64,000 bases of DNA. Origin: Escherichia coli (GTDB lineage: Bacteria > Pseudomonadota > Gammaproteobacteria > Enterobacterales > Enterobacteriaceae). How positions within the stretch are numbered: the first letter of the stretch is position 1; each line of letters begins with the position of its first letter. Below are positions 14,631 through 24,259 of this stretch, piece by piece. The stretch lies in NCBI RefSeq assembly GCF_022846255.1, contig NZ_AP025682.1, one strand, 5' to 3'. The translations under genes and the position numbers were made by a program. The notes under the pieces were generated by a model. It did not search any database. It saw only the letters and a list, made by a program, of their open reading frames with translations, and was not told the origin of the DNA.

Positions 14631-15566
14631 ATGGCACTGCCAATTCTGTTAGATTGCGACCCAGGTCATGATGACGCTATCGCAATAGTTCTCGCCCTCG
14701 CCTCACCAGAGCTTGATGTCAAAGCAATTACGTCTTCCGCCGGAAACCAGACTCCAGAAAAAACCTTACGCAATGTTCTGCGTATGCTGACCTTGCTTAA
14801 TCGCACCGATATTCCGGTAGCAGGCGGCGCGGTAAAACCATTAATGCGTGATTTGATTATCGCGGACAATGTGCACGGCGAAAGCGGTCTCGACGGCCCT
14901 GCATTACCGGAACCGACGTTCGCACCGCAAAACTGTACGGCGGTGGAGCTGATGGCGAAAACGCTGCGTGAAAGTGCGGAACCCGTCACCATTGTTTCTA
15001 CCGGACCGCAAACGAACGTTGCCTTGCTGCTCAATAGCCACCCGGAACTGCATAGCAAAATTGCCCGTATCGTTATTATGGGCGGCGCAATGGGGCTTGG
15101 TAACTGGACGCCTGCGGCTGAATTTAATATTTACGTTGACCCGGAAGCGGCAGAAATTGTCTTCCAGTCAGGAATTCCGGTGGTGATGGCCGGTCTGGAT
15201 GTTACTCACAAAGCACAAATCCACGTTGAAGACACTGAGCGTTTCCGCGCGATTGGCAACCCTGTTTCAACCATTGTTGCCGAACTGCTGGATTTCTTCC
15301 TCGAATATCATAAAGACGAAAAATGGGGCTTTGTCGGCGCACCGCTGCATGACCCATGCACCATCGCCTGGCTGTTAAAACCGGAGTTGTTTACCACTGT
15401 TGAGCGCTGGGTTGGCGTGGAAACACAAGGGAAATATACCCAGGGTATGACGGTTGTTGATTATTATTATCTGACCGGCAATAAACCGAATGCTACTGTA
15501 ATGGTCGATGTTGATCGTCAGGGCTTTGTTGATTTACTGGCTGATCGTCTGAAATTTTACGCTTAA
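14631..15566 (+). CDS. rihA: pyrimidine-specific ribonucleoside hydrolase
   Basis: ORF 14598..15566; start set at [23 protein letters not shown] (DxDxxxDD nucleoside hydrolase motif), aaggag SD upstream. Confidence 0.9.
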
Positions 15567-15649
15567 CACACGTCATTGATTAAGATCACCACGCGTTACC
15601 TGGGTGGTCTTAATCTGTTTATCTCTTTTTCCTTTAAGATATAAATGCA

Positions 15650-17320
15650 ATGGATAATGCAGAACTCGCCATTGGTATCGATCTCGGTACTACCAATAGT
15701 TTAATTGCCGTCTGGAAAGACGGTGCCGCGCAATTAATTCCAAATAAGTTCGGTGAATATTTAACACCATCCATAATTAGCATGGATGAAAATAATCATA
15801 TTTTAGTCGGAAAACCCGCTGTATCACGGCGCACTTCGCATCCGGATAAAACGGCAGCGTTATTTAAACGTGCAATGGGCAGTAATACCAACTGGCGGTT
15901 AGGCAGCGACACATTTAACGCGCCAGAACTGTCCTCTTTGGTATTACGCTCATTAAAAGAAGATGCCGAAGAATTTCTGCAACGTCCGATTAAAGATGTG
16001 GTGATCTCCGTTCCGGCTTATTTCAGCGATGAACAACGCAAGCATACCCGTTTAGCAGCGGAGTTAGCCGGGTTAAATGCGGTACGCTTAATTAATGAAC
16101 CCACAGCAGCTGCGATGGCATATGGCCTGCATACGCAACAAAATACCCGCTCGCTGGTTTTTGATCTCGGTGGCGGCACGTTTGACGTCACGGTGCTCGA
16201 ATACGCCACGCCGGTGATTGAAGTTCACGCCTCCGCTGGCGACAACTTTCTTGGCGGCGAAGATTTTACTCATATGCTGGTGGATGAAGTTTTAAAACGC
16301 GCCGCAGTGGCTAAAAACATGCTCAACGAAAGTGAGCTGGCAGCCCTGTACACCAGCGTGGAAGCGGCAAAATGCAGCAATCAATTACCGCTGCAAATTA
16401 GCTGGCAGTATCAGGAAGAAACGCGTGAGTGCGAATTTTACGAGAACGAACTGGAAGATTTGTGGTTGCCGCTGCTCAATCGCTTGCGAGTGCCGATTGA
16501 ACAGGCGTTGCGCGATGCACGTCTGAAGCCAAGTCAAATCGACAGTCTGGTGCTGGTTGGCGGCGCATCACAAATGCCGCTGGTGCAGCGAATCGCCGTG
16601 CGTCTGTTTGGCAAATTACCGTATCAAAGTTACGACCCGAGTACTATTGTCGCGCTGGGCGCAGCGATCCAGGCCGCCTGCCGCTTACGCAGCGAAGACA
16701 TTGAAGAAGTGATCCTCACCGATATTTGCCCCTACTCCTTAGGTGTTGAAGTTAACCGCCAGGGCGTTTCCGGCATTTTCTCGCCGATTATTGAACGAAA
16801 CACCACTGTACCGGTGTCGCGTGTAGAAACTTACTCGACCATGCACCCGGAACAGGATTCAATTACGGTTAACGTCTATCAGGGAGAAAACCACAAAGTT
16901 AAAAATAACATTCTGGTGGAATCCTTCGATGTGCCGTTGAAGAAAACCGGGGCTTATCAGTCGATTGATATTCGCTTTAGTTATGATATCAACGGGTTGC
17001 TTGAAGTTGACGTGCTTCTGGAAGACGGCAGCGTTAAGTCCAGAGTCATTAATCACAGTCCTGTAACATTGAGCGCGCAGCAGATTGAAGAGAGTCGGAC
17101 GCGGTTATCCGCATTGAAAATTTATCCGCGCGATATGCTCATCAACCGCACCTTTAAGGCCAAACTGGAAGAGTTGTGGGCGCGGGCGCTGGGTGACGAG
17201 CGAGAAGAGATCGGCCGGGTGATCACCGATTTTGATGCGGCGTTGCAGTCAAACGATATGGCCCGCGTCGATGAAGTTCGGCGACGGGCGAGCGATTATT
17301 TGGCTATTGAGCTCCCTTAA
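15650..17320 (+). CDS. hscC: Hsp70-family chaperone HscC (Hsc62)
   Basis: 556 aa; N-terminal IGIDLGTTNSLIAVW actin-like ATPase motif. Confidence 0.95.
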   Translation: MDNAELAIGIDLGTTNSLIAVWKDGAAQLIPNKFGEYLTPSIISMDENNHILVGKPAVSRRTSHPDKTAALFKRAMGSNTNWRLGSDTFNAPELSSLVLRSLKEDAEEFLQRPIKDVVISVPAYFSDEQRKHTRLAAELAGLNAVRLINEPTAAAMAYGLHTQQNTRSLVFDLGGGTFDVTVLEYATPVIEVHASAGDNFLGGEDFTHMLVDEVLKRAAVAKNMLNESELAALYTSVEAAKCSNQLPLQISWQYQEETRECEFYENELEDLWLPLLNRLRVPIEQALRDARLKPSQIDSLVLVGGASQMPLVQRIAVRLFGKLPYQSYDPSTIVALGAAIQAACRLRSEDIEEVILTDICPYSLGVEVNRQGVSGIFSPIIERNTTVPVSRVETYSTMHPEQDSITVNVYQGENHKVKNNILVESFDVPLKKTGAYQSIDIRFSYDINGLLEVDVLLEDGSVKSRVINHSPVTLSAQQIEESRTRLSALKIYPRDMLINRTFKAKLEELWARALGDEREEIGRVITDFDAALQSNDMARVDEVRRRASDYLAIELP

Positions 17321-17326
17321 ACACGG

Positions 17327-17366
17327 CTGCCGGATGCGGCATAAACGCTGCATCCGGCATCGGCGC
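17327..17366. repeat. REP-like palindromic element between convergent hscC and djlC
   Basis: gctgccggatgcggcataaacgctgcatccggcatcggcgc contains the GCCGGATGCGGC REP core as an inverted pair. Confidence 0.5.
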
Positions 17367-17379
17367 AAAAAACACATCC

Positions 17380-18831
17380 TCAGCTAAACAACATCGCGAT
17401 TTTTCCGAGAGCATAACCTATCACCAGCACCGTTAAGCTGATTTTGATAATGCTGGTAATGCTCTGTGGTTTTTCATCCTCATCATTTTTTTCTTCGTGG
17501 TTTTCAGGTGTTGGCTCATCGACATCTTCATCCTCCGGCTCGAGTTTCACTTTCGTCAACAGCATCCGCGTGATAATGGCCTCTAATGGATGAGCATCTC
17601 CACCTTCCAGCCTTGTATTAAGACGGGCCAGCATCTCTTGTTTCGGGAACGCTTCCAGCACAACCTGTTCCGCTACCCGATACAAATCCAGTAACGGTGA
17701 ATCTTGTTCTGTCTCGCTACCGACTCTCGATTTCCACCATGCCCATGCTTTGCGCTTGAAGAATAACGACTCAATAAACGATTGACCTAACGGCGATAAT
17801 TTTCCGCTATGTAAAATTTCCGCCCATAACAGCCGCGTCCGGGCGCTCTCACCAGGAACATATTTCAACGGTTGACCTTGCGCATCTATCATGCTTCGCG
17901 CTTCGATAACCATCACTAATAACGCGAAATAATCCGGGCAATGACGCTTGCTCCACTGCAACAACAAATTATCAGCTTGTGTAGATGGGTAACTCTCCCG
18001 GTATGCGCAGAGATCGGCAAGCAGGCTTTCCCCCTCGCCACAGTACAACCGTTGCGCACACTGGTAATAACGGGCATCTTCGCTTTCTGGATTTTCTGCT
18101 TGCCACTGTTGGGCAACAGGAATAAGTTCCGCCATACCTGTTTTCACCGAGCTGTACCAGCGCAACAGTTTGCGATGTAACTTGACATCATCAGGAATGA
18201 ACCACGGACCTTCCATTGCCATAAACGCAGTGACATAGTCAGGATGGTAACGGCAGCAGCGTTCCAGCGCGAAGTAATACTCAACAGTCTGGTTCTGCAA
18301 CGCGACGGGATATTCCAGAAGGCTAAGGAAATCGAAACAATCACCAGCCTGAATGGCCTCAAGAAAAGCCTCCCTTTCTTCCTCATCCATTCCTTCGCTG
18401 TCATTAAACGAATGCCAGTTCAAACGCTCTGCTAGCAAAGAAGCACAATTTAATGAAAGATATCGCGCTTCTATAGCGACTGCACACAGCGGCCAGCGTA
18501 ATTGATCGACATCCTCCATGTTCCAGGTATTTAATTGCTGAATAAATTTCTGCCAGGCGGAGGGCTGAAAACGATCACTTTCAGAATCCAGTAATGCCCT
18601 GAATGCACGTAGTATTTCATGTTCAGCGGCGGCATCTTTTTCTTCATCATCTGCTTCCTCGACAGGATTTACCGCCAGTCGCAGCGCCTCTTCATAGGCC
18701 TGGCGTAATGCTTTAAACCCCTGCGGATCGGTTTCGGGATGACACAACGGTAAGCGAGCAAGATAAGCCTGGCGGATAATGTCTATTTGCGTCGTGCTTT
18801 CAATTTCGAGGATTTGCCAACATGTTTTCAT
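17380..18831 (-). CDS. djlC: J-domain co-chaperone of HscC, C-terminal membrane anchor
   Basis: 483 aa; N-terminal J-like region CWQILEIE...[20 protein letters not shown] (HPE rather than canonical HPD); C-terminal hydrophobic helix. Confidence 0.9.
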
Positions 18832-19535
18832 AGGTCGCTCACATCCTTAAGCGTTACCGGGCATTCAGGCTGGACAGTTAATGGCTGCCAGGGAAGCGTG
18901 GCATAGAAACGGTCGCTTCCCGCTGCCAGCTCTTCGAACATCCGACTCCCGGCGCTATCGTATTTGTACAGGGTTAGCGCCTCGCGTAGCGAAGCGTTGT
19001 CTTCGCACTGAGAAGATTGCCAGTAGAGACGCCCTAACGAATAGGCGGAAAAATAGTGCATCCAGCTGTGATAGTAATGGTGTGCTCGTATATAGACGCG
19101 CGATTGCAGCCATAAACTCTCGTCTTCCGTCAGCCACTTGTTGAGCACACCAACCCGTGATAAAAACCCCATCCGCACATAATCCCAGGCTTTGATTCCC
19201 CCTTCCCCACAACACATAGCGGTTTGGGCAACGAATTGGGTATAAATCAACCCTCTCTCCGAGCCGCCAGCAATTAATGCTTTCCACTCTTCAGGGGAAG
19301 AGCGATGCCATGTCAGATATAAGCCAGCTAAATCATTAGCATGACCATCATCGGTCATCTGATAAATAGTCTGAATTAAATCATCACGATTATTTATTCC
19401 CCAGGATGATGAGAGATCGAATTCTTTTATCCCGGTATACATTTTTGGCGAGTCATGCGCGGGCTTGCAACCCTGATTAAGTATTTCCATGGGCGTAGAA
19501 AGCGCAAAAAGAAGATATTGTTCTTCCTTATTCAT
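18828..19535 (-). CDS. ybeU: DUF1266-family protein
   Basis: 235 aa; paralogous to ybeR product; 4-nt ATGA overlap with djlC start. Confidence 0.85.
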
Positions 19536-19636
19536 TTGTTAATAATCCCTTATGTGCATTAACTGACTACTTTTTTATTATTGATGAGTATAAACTTGAC
19601 GCTTTCAAAATAAAAAGAAAATCGAAGCATTCACTC

Positions 19637-20191
19637 ATGAATAAAAAATTAATGTATATATTCGCAATATTTATAGTTGCAGCAATAACCTGTATTAGCC
19701 AACCCAAGAAAACGACGTTGCGTGATAAAGCCATGGCGAATTATGCCTTTGATTATTTAAGCTCACCGGGCAGTCTTCCATTCACCACGGCAGCCACGGA
19801 GCTTTCCGCGATTCATGGTCACTCAACGTCGCAATATCGCCTTGGAGAATTTTATCTTCATGGTAGCGACGGTAAACCACTGGATTATACACAGGCGAGA
19901 TACTGGTATGAGCAATCAGCGGAACAGGAAAATCCACGCGCGCAAAGTAAACTGGGGTGGATCTACCTCAAAGGTCTGGGGGTCAAACCCGATACCCGTA
20001 AAGCAATTCTCTGGTATAAGGAAGCAGCTGAACAAGGGTATGCTCATGCTCAATATACTTTAGGTTTGATCTACAGAAACGGCTCAGGTATTAATGTTAA
20101 CCATTATGAATCTCAAAAATGGTTAAAACTGGCCGCCAAACAACATTACAAAAACGCGGAAAGATTACTTGCCGGGCTTCCCGCACATTAA
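19637..20191 (+). CDS. ybeT: Sel1-like repeat protein with N-terminal signal/TM segment
   Basis: 184 aa; Sel1/TPR-like repeats (e.g. [39 protein letters not shown]). Confidence 0.85.
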
Positions 20192-20200
20192 CGTCGACTG

Positions 20201-21628
20201 TCACCCGAACAGATGGAGTATTTTCCCTATCAAACCGGCAAAGATAAAAATGTAGAAAATAATTTTGATGACGCCCAGGCAGCCCGGCCCACCATCGTCA
20301 ACGGGCATCGACTGCGGTTGCGGCTCCGGTTCGACGGTTTGCTTCTCGGTAAAATTTGCCGCCTGAATTAATAATCGACGAATCATTAATGCTTCCAGTG
20401 GACAACGATCTTCTGCATCAAGGCGGCTGACGATCGGCATTAATGATTCTTCTGTCGGTTGGCTGGCCTGAACTAATTGTTTAGCAACTAAATATAATGG
20501 CCATAAGGGATGTTCTGTATCACGCGTGAGTGAGATCCGCGGCTTACGTCCTTTGTGCAAAACCATCTCGACCAGAGAACGCCCCAGCGCAGAGAGTTTT
20601 TCATCACTGAGTATTTCGTATAAATGAAAACGCGTACGAGCGCTGTCACCAGGGACATAAAGTAGCGGTTTTCCCTGATCGTTAACCAGATCACGCGCTT
20701 CAATCATCATCACCACTAACGGGTAATAATCGACCCGATGCTGACGGCACCATTGCAACATTAAAGCATCCGCCTGGGTGGAGGGATACTCGCGCCAGTA
20801 GTCACAAAGTTCTGCCAGCAGGCTTTCGCCTTCTCCACAATAGACGCGTTGCGCGTATTCATAATAACGCGCATCTTCATTATCAGGTTCAGCTTCCTGC
20901 CACGACCGGGCGTAATCCAGAAGTTCGGGGATATCCAGACGGCTTGTGCTATACCAGCGGAGTAAATTTCTGTGCAAATTTGCATCATCGGGGATAATCA
21001 CTGCGCGATGTTGCGCTAAATACAATGTCAGCCATTCTGGATGCGATGACCAAATCCGAGCGAACATTTGGTAAAAATCAATGGTGTCATTTTGTACGGC
21101 AACGGGCAGATGCAGAATGGTCTGGAAGTTAAAAACATTCCCCTTCGCAATGGCATATAAAAAGGATTCCAGTTCTTCTTCGTCTATTTCCCCGACGTTT
21201 TCCTCCTGCAACCACCGCAATCTTTCTGCTAATAACACCACGCACTCGAAGGATAAATGGGCAGTGTTCATGGCTATTGTGCACAGCGACCAGCGTAATT
21301 CATCAATATCTTCCATCGAGCAATAATTTAATTGCTGAATGAATCGCTGCCAGGCAGAGGGCAGAAAACGTTCGCTATCAGAGGCGAGTAACGCACGAAA
21401 GGCGAGCAGAATTTCATGTTCTGCAACTTCATGTTCTTCTGGTTGCCAAACAGATTTAGCAGGCGACTGCGCAATCCGTAGCGCGTCCTCATACGCCTGA
21501 CGAAGTTGTTTAAAACCCTGCGGATCGGTTTCTGGATGAAAGGACGGTAACAGCGCCAGATAAGCGCGGCGGATAATATCGACGTCAGTCGTTTCCTCTA
21601 TTTCGAGAATCTTCCAGCAATTTTTCAT
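20201..21628 (-). CDS. djlB: J-domain protein, paralogue of DjlC
   Basis: 475 aa; N-terminus [39 protein letters not shown] parallels DjlC; C-terminal hydrophobic anchor. Confidence 0.9.
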
Positions 21629-22359
21629 AGGTCGCTCATATCCTTAAGCGTTTCCGGGCATGTGGGGTAGTCAGCCAGTGGTTGCCAGGGTAAGGTCGCG
21701 TAATATGCATCGTCACTGGCAAATAATTGATAAAACATATCATTGCCGGAATCGTCGTATTCTTTACGCGCTAAGAATTCACGTAATAAAGGCAGATCAT
21801 CATCCTCGGGAGACTGCCAATATTGCCGACCAAAGGTATAACCGGCAAAGTATTGCCGCCAGTTACTATAATAACGTAGAGCCCGTAGATGAATGCGCGA
21901 CTGGATCCACAGGCTTTCTTCTTCACTCAACCAGTTATTAAGTACGCCCATTCGGCTTAAAAAACCCATCCGGACATAATCCCAGGCTTTAATTCCTCCC
22001 TCACCACAGCATTCGGCGGTGCTGGCGACAAATTGCGCATAAGCCTGACCTTGCTCATTTAATTCAGCAAGATAGTCACGCCATTCACATGGCGAATAAC
22101 GAAACCAGCAGTGATAAAACCCTGCCAACCGCGCGGCATGACCGTTATCAATCATTCGGTAAATTGTGCGCAGCAGGTCATCACGGTCATCAATTCCCCA
22201 GGAGGAAGAAAGGTCAAAAAAGCGTGTACCTAAATACATTTTGGGGGACGAATGCGAAGGTAAACAGCATTCATTGCGTATTTCCATCGGAGTGGAAAGT
22301 GCAAACAATATTTTTTGCGACTCCATGTCCATATAATTCATCCTTAAATATTCATTCAA
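21625..22359 (-). CDS. ybeR: DUF1266-family protein
   Basis: 244 aa; paralogous to ybeU product; 4-nt overlap with djlB start. Confidence 0.85.
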
Positions 22360-22489
22360 TGAATATTAACCACGTTGCGAGGCTCATTTATTTATACTTT
22401 TCTGACGCAACATAATACGCATAAAATAAGGCTTACGCAAAAATGGAACACATAAAAATATAATATGTTTTATATGCAACCATAAGGAA

Positions 22490-23473
22490 ATGATAATGAT
22501 TTTTACGTCAAGTTGCTGCGATAATTTATCAATAGAAAAGATTGTTAAACGTGCTGAAAAAGGCGATAGCGAGGCTCAATATATTGTTGGGTTTTATTAT
22601 AATCGCGATAGCGCAATTGACTCTCCGGACGACGAAAAAGCCTTCTACTGGCTGAAGCTTGCCGCTGAACAAGGCCATTGTGAAGCACAATATTCCTTAG
22701 GGCGGAAATACTCCGAGGATAAAAGCCGTCATAAAGATAATGAGCAAGCTATCTTTTGGCTGAAAAAAGCTGCCCTACAAGGCCATACTTTCGCTTCCAA
22801 CGCCCTTGGCTGGATACTGGATCGTGGAGAAGACCCCAACTATAAAGAAGCGGTTGCCTGGTATCAGATAGCCGCGGAGAGCGGAATGCCTTATGCGCAA
22901 AATAATCTTGGATGGATGTACAGAAATGGCAACGGAGTCGCACAAGACTATGCGCTGGCATTTTTCTGGTACAAACAAGCTGCATTACAAGGCCATAGTT
23001 ACGCGCAAGACAACCTGGCCGATCTCTATAAAGACGGAGAAGGCGTTGCTCAAAACAAGACACTCGCCGCATTCTGGTATTTGAAAAGCGCACAGCAGGG
23101 TAATCGGCATGCCCAGTTTCAAATTGCATGGGATTATAACGCTGGCGAAGGGGTGGACCAGGACTATAAGCAAGCGATGTACTGGTATCTGAAGGCTGCC
23201 GCTCAGGAAAGCGTCGGCGCTTACGTCAACATCGGTTATATGTATAAACATGGACAAGGCGTTGAGAAAGATTATCAGGCCGCCTTTGAATGGTTTACGA
23301 AAGCCGCTGAATGCGATAATGCCACTGCCTGGTATAACCTTGCCATTATGTATCATTACGGAGAAGGAAGACCTGTCGATCTCCGACAGGCTCTCGATCT
23401 GTATCGTAAAGCTCAGTCATCCGGTACCAGGGATGTCAGTCAAAAAATCCGTGAGATTGAAGATTTACTGTAA
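22490..23473 (+). CDS. ybeQ: Sel1-like repeat protein
   Basis: 327 aa; about 8 tandem Sel1 repeats (AQYxLGxxYxxGxGVxQD pattern). Confidence 0.85.
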   Translation: MIMIFTSSCCDNLSIEKIVKRAEKGDSEAQYIVGFYYNRDSAIDSPDDEKAFYWLKLAAEQGHCEAQYSLGRKYSEDKSRHKDNEQAIFWLKKAALQGHTFASNALGWILDRGEDPNYKEAVAWYQIAAESGMPYAQNNLGWMYRNGNGVAQDYALAFFWYKQAALQGHSYAQDNLADLYKDGEGVAQNKTLAAFWYLKSAQQGNRHAQFQIAWDYNAGEGVDQDYKQAMYWYLKAAAQESVGAYVNIGYMYKHGQGVEKDYQAAFEWFTKAAECDNATAWYNLAIMYHYGEGRPVDLRQALDLYRKAQSSGTRDVSQKIREIEDLL

Positions 23474-23542
23474 GAGATAAAAACAAGGGCCGGGGAATTT
23501 TATTCGGCCCATATCTCTTTATTGCTGTGCGAAATCAGACCA

Positions 23543-24025
23543 TTAAGGCTCGAACGGGCGTCTCTGGAACTGGTCATGACCACATTTCGGGCATAGCGTC
23601 AGCACTTCCGGTGTGTAGATCGGGAGATGGAAGTGACATTTCTCGCAGACCAGATTTCCCAGCCCTACCACTTCTCCGCTGTGATAAACCCCGTGATGAT
23701 TGAGGTCCTGGAAAACTTCTCGCCATTCAAGCTGCGTTTTATCGGTGATGTCTGCCAGCTCCTGCCACAAGCTTTCTTTAATCACCCGCATAAAGACGCT
23801 GTCAGACTCTTCTTTCAGGCTCTCTTCATAGCTCATGGCGAACTCTTCCAGGTCACGTCTGACAGCTCGCGTCAGCTCATCGACCTCGGTTCGCGTTAAC
23901 TCCCCTGTTTTTATTACGCGCTCGCGCGCCTGTTCCACCAGTGCGTCGATATCACGTTCGCCATTGCGCAGGCGTTCGCTCAGTGACGCGACCAGTTCAC
24001 GGTAATATTGAGCAACCTTGTTCAT
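23543..24025 (-). CDS. ybeL: DUF1451 zinc-ribbon protein
   Basis: 160 aa; C-terminal CEKCHFH...CPKCGHDQF zinc-ribbon cysteines. Confidence 0.85.
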   Translation of the reverse strand: MNKVAQYYRELVASLSERLRNGERDIDALVEQARERVIKTGELTRTEVDELTRAVRRDLEEFAMSYEESLKEESDSVFMRVIKESLWQELADITDKTQLEWREVFQDLNHHGVYHSGEVVGLGNLVCEKCHFHLPIYTPEVLTLCPKCGHDQFQRRPFEP

Positions 24026-24259
24026 CGTTTCATCTCCCGGGTCGTTAACTGACTATAATAATAGACGTTCTTTGTTCCTTGCTTTGCTAATACGCCCACA
24101 AACTCTGTAAATTAATGTATGAATAATCCGGGCATCATTTCAACGTCGAGTGCGCGAAAGGCTGTTTTGACGCGGACGTTTGGGCTATGCTATGCGGATC
24201 TGAAAAACCACCTCAACGCTACATTTGTAGCCGTATTGAAAACAGGACCACTGGCTGCC

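Follow-up and report, generated by a model that had tools for sequence, protein, structure and literature searches.

Conserved linkage of DUF1266 genes with the HscC-type Hsp70 and its J-proteins in Escherichia coli and other bacteria

Of the three Hsp70s of Escherichia coli, HscC is the one least understood; its J-proteins were identified in 2002, and its clients have been unknown for more than 20 years. The stretch of E. coli chromosome analyzed here (64,000 nucleotides of contig NZ_AP025682.1, referred to as the window) contains the annotated HscC (third Hsp70) chaperone locus, which consists of a block at positions 17380 to 23473 and the adjoining hscC gene. The question raised by this locus is which of its genes form a unit with the Hsp70 and what they contribute to it. 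The open reading frame (ORF) hscC (15650 to 17320, plus strand; RefSeq “molecular chaperone HscC”) encodes an atypical Hsp70 of 556 amino acids (aa) and is convergent with djlC (17380 to 18831, minus strand), the ORF for a J-domain cochaperone of HscC of 483 aa. The ybeU-djlC operon is led by ybeU (18828 to 19535, minus strand), which encodes a DUF1266 protein of 235 aa. The paralogous pair in the same block consists of ybeR (21625 to 22332, minus strand; also DUF1266 and 235 aa from the ATG at 22332, with a possible upstream extension to a TTG at 22359) and djlB (20201 to 21628, minus strand; 475 aa). The conserved unit is the Hsp70 together with a J-protein and a DUF1266 protein.

Relatives of YbeU were sought among 1.84 billion representative proteins, and full-length matches were recovered down to approximately 25% identity, together with many multidomain proteins. 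Scanning of genomes, one per species, with an alignment of seven YbeU-like proteins produced 78 loci, of which 77 were usable; ORFs were called in these loci and then searched with the seven window proteins. The loci came from Escherichia, Klebsiella, Rahnella, Erwinia, Pectobacterium, Limnobaculum, Gilliamella, many Pseudomonas, Marinobacter, and Bowmanella. Conserved linkage, which had been set beforehand as the check capable of refuting the earlier sequence-only reading of this DNA, was strongly evident for DUF1266, J-protein, and HscC: a DUF1266 gene, an overlapping DjlB/C-like gene, and an adjacent gene for an HscC-type Hsp70 occurred together at 74 of the 77 loci, and the other 3 were cut by contig or locus ends. 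The Hsp70 neighbors in related loci contained the Pfam HSP70 domain. The Hsp70 gene was convergent in 73 of the 74 complete loci and codirectional in Marinobacter. The overlap of the DUF1266 stop codon with the djl start codon contained ATGA in 81 of 84 pairs from other genomes and TAATG in the remaining 3. Coupling of the two genes, as that reading had proposed, is thus supported across genera, and the literature lists both ybeU-djlC and ybeR-djlB as operons (PMC5797941 and PMC3946193).

The same triad was found on metagenomic contigs among unrelated housekeeping neighbors, and the neighborhoods differed between genera. Triads also surrounded DUF1266 proteins with 22 to 32% identity to YbeU in Vibrio, Aeromonas, Sessilibacter, and a metagenome-assembled genome (MAG) of the Desulfobacteraceae. 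Triad order was unchanged in Vibrio and Aeromonas, and genes for the Hsp70, J-protein, and DUF1266 protein lay on one strand in Sessilibacter, the Desulfobacteraceae MAG, and another metagenomic lineage. Linkage that persists despite altered gene order is good evidence for a functional unit. Presence across the E. coli pan-genome gave further support, with hscC (4409 of 5426 complete genomes), djlC-ybeU (4402 of 5426), and djlB-ybeR (4408 of 5426) jointly present or jointly absent. A functional triad of HscC, Djl, and DUF1266 proteins is therefore very probable, and, judged by the searchable literature, the identification of DUF1266 as its conserved third component appears to be new.

Two observations were made in the related loci besides the linkage. 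In many Pseudomonas (such as loci L017, L031, and L045), the 3′ ends of the convergent genes djl and hscC shared 4 bases, so that no space is left for a terminator between them. A contig labeled Paenibacillus sp. USDA918EY (L012) carried at its end a ybeU sequence 98% identical to that of E. coli, for which assembly contamination is a more likely source than gene transfer.

YbeU matched the Pfam DUF1266 family (PF06889) with an E value of 4.4e-45 over model positions 2 to 175 of 175, and YbeR is 61% identical to YbeU. In the AlphaFold2 model, YbeU formed a compact domain with an all-alpha fold and 12 helices (predicted local distance difference test [pLDDT], 92.6; predicted template modeling score [pTM], 0.90). 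No solved structural relative of YbeU was found, and comparison of the model with AFDB50 by Foldseek returned DUF1266 proteins only. Residues W45, H65, W117, D118, R121, E139, W158, and G168 (YbeU numbering) were invariant or nearly so in YbeU-like proteins, and the same positions were conserved in 42 multidomain DUF1266 proteins. Many of these 42 had a hydrophobic, signal-peptide-like N terminus, and they carried Cu_amine_oxidN1 (8 of 42), SLH (4 of 42), TPR, or LRR domains. Retention of these positions in secreted multidomain homologues indicates a site that would be intrinsic to the domain and independent of Hsp70, and the conservation points to a putative binding or catalytic function for it.

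The relation between the DUF1266 protein and the J-protein was modeled with AlphaFold2 as a YbeU-(GGGGS)5-DjlC chain, in which a 25-residue Gly-Ser linker joined the two proteins and 24 sequences paired by gene neighborhood were used. The model (pTM, 0.74; pLDDT, 83.4; residues 262 to 743 representing DjlC) had only three regions of low confidence: the linker that had been introduced, the acidic one that follows the J domain, and the residues preceding the membrane anchor. Had YbeU (235 of the 743 residues) been unplaced relative to DjlC, a pTM ceiling of approximately 0.6 was estimated; the higher value obtained suggests that YbeU is docked confidently on DjlC in the prediction. A second line of evidence came from the Paenibacillaceae, in which 30 contigs encoded a 497-aa fusion protein that begins with an HPE J domain, continues with TPR repeats, and ends in DUF1266. 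A physical complex of DUF1266 and Djl proteins is considered probable.

The explanation judged best, and moderately favored, is a three-gene system of HscC, an HPE J-protein, and a DUF1266 protein, with the last acting as the subunit of the J-protein that confers specificity. Under this explanation, the DUF1266 protein would be made in step with the J-protein from the same mRNA by way of the overlapping stop and start codons, and each DUF1266 protein would bind the helical body of its own J-protein at approximately 1:1 on the cytoplasmic face of the inner membrane. It would supply a specific recognition site formed by W45, H65, W117, D118, R121, E139, and W158 (YbeU numbering). The HPE J domain would then trigger ATP hydrolysis by HscC, which would clamp whatever the complex presents, and the two J/DUF1266 pairs of E. 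coli would feed two specificities into one HscC. A more far-reaching proposal, offered tentatively and given slightly less than an even chance, is that DUF1266 is the missing third subunit of the HscC machine, binding the body of the J-protein and carrying a conserved pocket for a ligand or peptide that is also present in secreted cell-surface proteins of Firmicutes. If so, the HscC system would be a membrane-associated device that recognizes one defined molecule or motif rather than a general folding chaperone, and the two pairs in E. coli would correspond to two such specificities.

The DUF1266 protein could instead be a dedicated client in the manner of IscU, with the body of the J-protein handing YbeU or YbeR to HscC for remodeling that might, for example, switch a DUF1266 activity on or off at the membrane. 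The isc operon encodes a specialized Hsp70, its J-protein, and their single client together. The rigid three-gene linkage found here resembles that operon, and the polar site conserved throughout the DUF1266 family suggests an independent activity, as would suit a client; so would the narrow substrate spectrum of HscC (PMC8215388). The Paenibacillaceae fusion makes this role less likely, since the presence of a J domain and DUF1266 in one chain is usual for the binding domain of a J-protein itself and not for a client, and the very confident prediction of YbeU as a compact helical domain (with the pLDDT given above) also speaks against it. As a whole, the client explanation is regarded as unlikely.

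Several points nevertheless weigh against DUF1266 as a specificity subunit. No Hsp70 gene was present within 8 kb of the Paenibacillaceae fusion. Many DUF1266 proteins are secreted or located at the cell surface and have no link to an Hsp70, which indicates that the domain is not intrinsically part of a chaperone. The docking of YbeU is read from pTM alone in a model whose paired alignment was shallow and whose linker was artificial. Synteny cannot distinguish an adaptor from a client, and the searchable literature yielded no phenotype for ybeU or ybeR. On the choice between these two roles, the chance that DUF1266 is an adaptor is put at a little under even.

DjlC and DjlB align from end to end with 50% identity. 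DjlC consists of a J domain at approximately aa 1 to 55, an alpha-helical TPR-like body, an acidic linker, and a C-terminal tail anchor. Its match to Pfam DnaJ was marginal (E value, 0.036), as was that of the long Pseudomonas form (E value, 0.063), and a Vibrio Djl homologue had a precomputed DnaJ match with an E value of at most 1e-5. The DjlC triad is HPE (18733 to 18741, minus strand) rather than the canonical HPD, and so is that of DjlB (21530 to 21538, minus strand). HPE in DjlB and DjlC is described as the one tolerated variant of HPD (PMC13254874 and PMC10410713), and the J domain of DjlC is accepted in the literature as functional (PMC8215388). Hydrophobic C-terminal segments encoded at 17383 to 17463 (DjlC) and 20204 to 20293 (DjlB), both on the minus strand, form the tail anchors; DjlC is a true tail-anchored inner-membrane protein whose insertion has been demonstrated experimentally (PMC6794478).

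HPE was retained in the Djl proteins of nearly all of 80 related loci. YPE replaced it in the DjlC orthologue of Escherichia sp. E1V33 (L010:10705-12156), HPPE was found in Marinobacter xestospongiae (L080), NPE in Sessilibacter (L092), and the canonical HPD in the Desulfobacteraceae MAG. The triad thus varies inside this family of J-proteins. The membrane anchor is likewise not universal, as the Djl homologues of three distant loci (L090, L092, and L093) had a nonhydrophobic C terminus and were apparently anchorless, without any membrane segment. In Escherichia sp. MOD1-EC7003 (L008:3648-5003), a third djl-like gene lay upstream of ybeQ; it was split into a 93-aa ORF with an HPE J domain and a 344-aa ORF with a hydrophobic tail, had no DUF1266 gene beside it, and is probably a decayed extra paralogue.

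Outside the group of Escherichia, Salmonella, and Klebsiella, the J-protein was at least 800 aa long in 67 cases. The long form, of approximately 890 aa, comprised a J domain followed by a helical TPR-like body, then an extension of approximately 430 aa, and a C-terminal polytopic DUF805 membrane domain with multiple passes (Pfam E value, 1.8e-7), and most long forms had an NRYGPPP-like motif near the C terminus. Residues 1 to 353 of DjlC aligned with the first 367 or so residues of the long protein at approximately 30% identity. By sequence comparison, enterobacterial DjlB and DjlC are a shortened and duplicated form of the approximately 890-aa DUF805 protein, with a single tail anchor in place of DUF805, and most bacteria have one Hsp70/J/DUF1266 system each, with the long J-protein. 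In the order of events proposed, the J-protein would have been cut to approximately 480 aa with a single tail anchor in the Escherichia/Salmonella lineage; tandem duplication of the DUF1266-djl operon would then have produced ybeU-djlC and ybeR-djlB, and genes for Sel1-repeat proteins would have joined the locus, ybeQ in the lineage as a whole and ybeT in Escherichia only. The DUF805 ancestry appears to be a new finding. It also means that E. coli has to be reconsidered as the model for this system, its J-proteins being truncated and duplicated derivatives.

The two Sel1 genes stand apart from the triad. A 184-aa protein with three Sel1 repeats (Pfam PF08238; E values from 1e-11 to 3e-5) and an N-terminal hydrophobic, signal-like segment is encoded by ybeT (19637 to 20191, plus strand), and a 327-aa protein with eight repeats and no signal sequence by ybeQ (22490 to 23473, plus strand). 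The two were alike only through generic Sel1 repeats (approximately 37% identity). From the presence of the signal-like segment in one and its absence in the other, YbeT is apparently located outside the cytoplasm and YbeQ inside it, so that the two probably occupy different compartments.

These genes bear on the possibility that Sel1, DUF1266, and J-protein genes form a duplicated three-gene module whose Sel1 proteins serve the chaperone as partners or as adaptors for clients. Scaffolding of interactions is typical of Sel1/TPR proteins, a divergent Sel1 gene lies beside each DUF1266-djl operon in Escherichia, ybeT and ybeU-djlC respond jointly to SlyA and H-NS, and the position of ybeQ is kept in Salmonella. 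The wider survey went the other way. No Sel1 gene occurred within 10 kb in the 74 non-Escherichia genome loci, none adjoined the metagenomic or distant DUF1266 loci, and Klebsiella spallanzanii had a single short-form module without a Sel1 gene. Salmonella shared the tandem duplication and its chromosomal site and had a homologue of ybeQ in place, but its two DUF1266-djl operons abutted directly, without ybeT between them; the duplicated unit is therefore the two-gene operon and not a three-gene Sel1 module. The limited likeness of YbeT and YbeQ and their probable difference in compartment also argue against such a module, as does the lack of relation between YbeQ and the segment lost from the long J-proteins. 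A Sel1 module is thus decidedly improbable. Overall, ybeQ is common to Escherichia and Salmonella, ybeT is specific to Escherichia, and neither belongs to the conserved core; that the Sel1 genes are mere lineage-specific neighbors appears to be a new point.

The idea that YbeQ is a remnant of, or substitute for, the lost segment of approximately 430 aa was considered separately and rejected. A profile of the segment gave E values of 0.4 to 0.6 against YbeQ and YbeT (hmmsearch), the hhalign probability for YbeQ was 0.2%, and the short J-protein of Klebsiella spallanzanii has no Sel1 neighbor. Between hscC and rihA, Salmonella enterica carried an extra gene of 412 aa (L095:12951-14189) with no Pfam match, which was absent from the E. 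coli window.

Gene order in E. coli is rihA, hscC, djlC, ybeU, ybeT, djlB, ybeR, ybeQ, and ybeL, in agreement with RefSeq names. The ATGA shared by stop and start codons lies at 18828 to 18831 for ybeU and djlC and at 21625 to 21628 for ybeR and djlB (both minus strand). Divergent control regions with 28% guanine-plus-cytosine (GC) content separate ybeU from ybeT (19536 to 19636) and ybeR from ybeQ (22333 to 22489). The stop codons of the convergent genes ybeT and djlB are 9 bases apart (20192 to 20200), and the gap between the convergent hscC and djlC is 59 bases (17321 to 17379); transcription from each side must enter the opposing gene. GC content was 46.2% in the block and 51 to 52% in the flanks, a modest AT richness.

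Much of what the sequence-only reading had described in the block was borne out by these data. The ORFs lie where it had placed them and contain the peptide strings that it quoted; the 4-nucleotide ATGA overlaps, the HPE triads and hydrophobic C-terminal anchors of both J-proteins, and the AT richness of a block adjoining hscC were all observed. Its view of two duplicated paralogous units stood for DjlC/DjlB and YbeU/YbeR, at the identities given above, and failed for the Sel1 genes as paralogous parts of the repeated unit; its inclusion of Sel1 in the module was contradicted by the absence of such genes around loci outside Escherichia and by Salmonella, which keeps only the ybeQ homologue.

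Control of the block has been reported previously. Expression of ybeT and ybeU-djlC is activated by SlyA and lies within the H-NS regulon (PMC5797941), an H-NS site and RpoD promoters were reported in the ybeR/ybeQ spacer (PMC3946193), and the two operons are listed as controlled by H-NS, SlyA, and Crl (PMC5797941 and PMC3946193). In strain 042, mutation of hns led to strong derepression of a DUF1266 gene. The paper that reports this is the only one in the searchable literature in which DUF1266 appears, as a line in an expression table, and no discussion of YbeU or YbeR as part of a chaperone system was found there. An RRS paper that names djlC 11 times uses the djlC site merely as an insertion point. 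Scans for consensus promoters (9 promoter-like sites versus 12.0 expected in shuffled sequence) and terminators (11 terminator-like sites versus 8.8 expected) were uninformative.

The score of HscC against the NCBIfam models of DnaK and HscA was 377 to 387 bits, far under the cutoffs of 620 to 822, so that HscC is neither DnaK nor HscA. Its ATPase is stimulated by DjlC, whereas DnaJ, CbpA, and HscB have no such effect (Kluck et al. 2002, as cited in PMC8215388), and a stimulatory role of DjlB is only assumed in the same review. The ΔhscC and ΔdjlB ΔdjlC mutants share sensitivity to Cd2+, and UV phenotypes have also been reported for them (PMC8215388). That review speculates that the role of HscC involves membrane proteins and Cd2+ detoxification, and its account agrees with the proposal, already made from the window, of an Hsp70 system that is dedicated, tethered to the membrane, and of unknown clientele (PMC8215388). 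The linkage to DUF1266 narrows the open-ended search for clients to specific experiments on YbeU and YbeR.

The locus is accessory in E. coli. The stretch at 15000 to 24100 was matched in 5424 of 5426 complete genomes, mostly at 95 to 99% identity, and the whole block was missing from approximately 19% of complete genomes, in which rihA adjoins ybeL directly. Joint absence with rihA abutting ybeL indicates that the block is gained or lost as a whole and that no part of it is essential. Certain strains had lost djlB-ybeR and part of ybeQ. When the rihA-ybeL junction in a strain lacking the block was compared with each end of the block, no direct repeats or attachment site were evident. In block-free E. 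coli JNEC-KY177 (L002:4567-4612), the short rihA-ybeL spacer contained the palindromic sequence GCCGGATG...CATCCGGC, which resembles a repetitive extragenic palindromic (REP) element and was absent from both ends of the block in the window. The insertion sequences IS1397, IS5, and IS1A were located inside or beside the block in several strains (GF131, PM4, and CEA106S), consistent with a dispensable locus that is still decaying.

Patchy distribution of this kind, together with AT richness and silencing by H-NS, might suggest that the block is an accessory island for defence or stress (for example, against phage) in which the Hsp70-like ATPase is an effector or sensor. PADLOC returned no significant match for any of the seven proteins: HscC, DjlC, DjlB, YbeU, and YbeR had none in PADLOC-DB 2.0, and the Sel1 proteins had weak, repeat-type matches to the PtuA model (E values from 1e-4 to 2e-3). 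The unit contains no mobility genes, and in other genera the triad is found among housekeeping genes in contexts that are stable but differ from one another. The published mutant phenotypes, sensitivity to Cd2+ and UV, are not phage related (PMC8215388), and no paper linking HscC to phage defence was found. A defence island is accordingly given only a very small chance.

The closest known system is that of E. coli itself. HscC (Hsc62) with DjlC (YbeV, Hsc56) and DjlB (YbeS) is the same system as the window locus, with identical genes, site (gltL-rihA ... ybeL-leuS), HPE J domains, and tail anchors, and with 96 to 99% DNA identity to the E. coli genomes in RefSeq; the locus as noted is already known, and the pairing of HscC with DjlB and DjlC, the HPE triad, the tail anchor, and control by H-NS and SlyA are already published. 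Published accounts of HscC in the searchable literature describe a two-component Hsp70/J system, to which this analysis adds the DUF1266 partner, the long DUF805 ancestor of the J-protein, and the lineage-specific standing of the Sel1 genes.

The HscA-HscB-IscU system is comparable in combining a specialized Hsp70, a dedicated class C J-protein, and a coencoded third protein that is acted on by the two, and in the exclusive pairing of its Hsp70 and J-protein (PMC13254874). The families involved differ, however: the J-protein on the HscC side is membrane bound and has HPE, and the third protein is a predicted all-alpha DUF1266 protein, whereas that of the Fe-S system is a client. In the DjlA-DnaK pair, likewise, an Hsp70 is brought to the cytoplasmic face of the inner membrane by a J-protein anchored there. 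DjlA has an N-terminal transmembrane segment, a C-terminal HPD J domain, and DnaK as its partner, whereas in DjlB and DjlC the J domain is N terminal and carries HPE, the anchor (or, in the long form, DUF805) is C terminal, and the association is with HscC and a DUF1266 partner.

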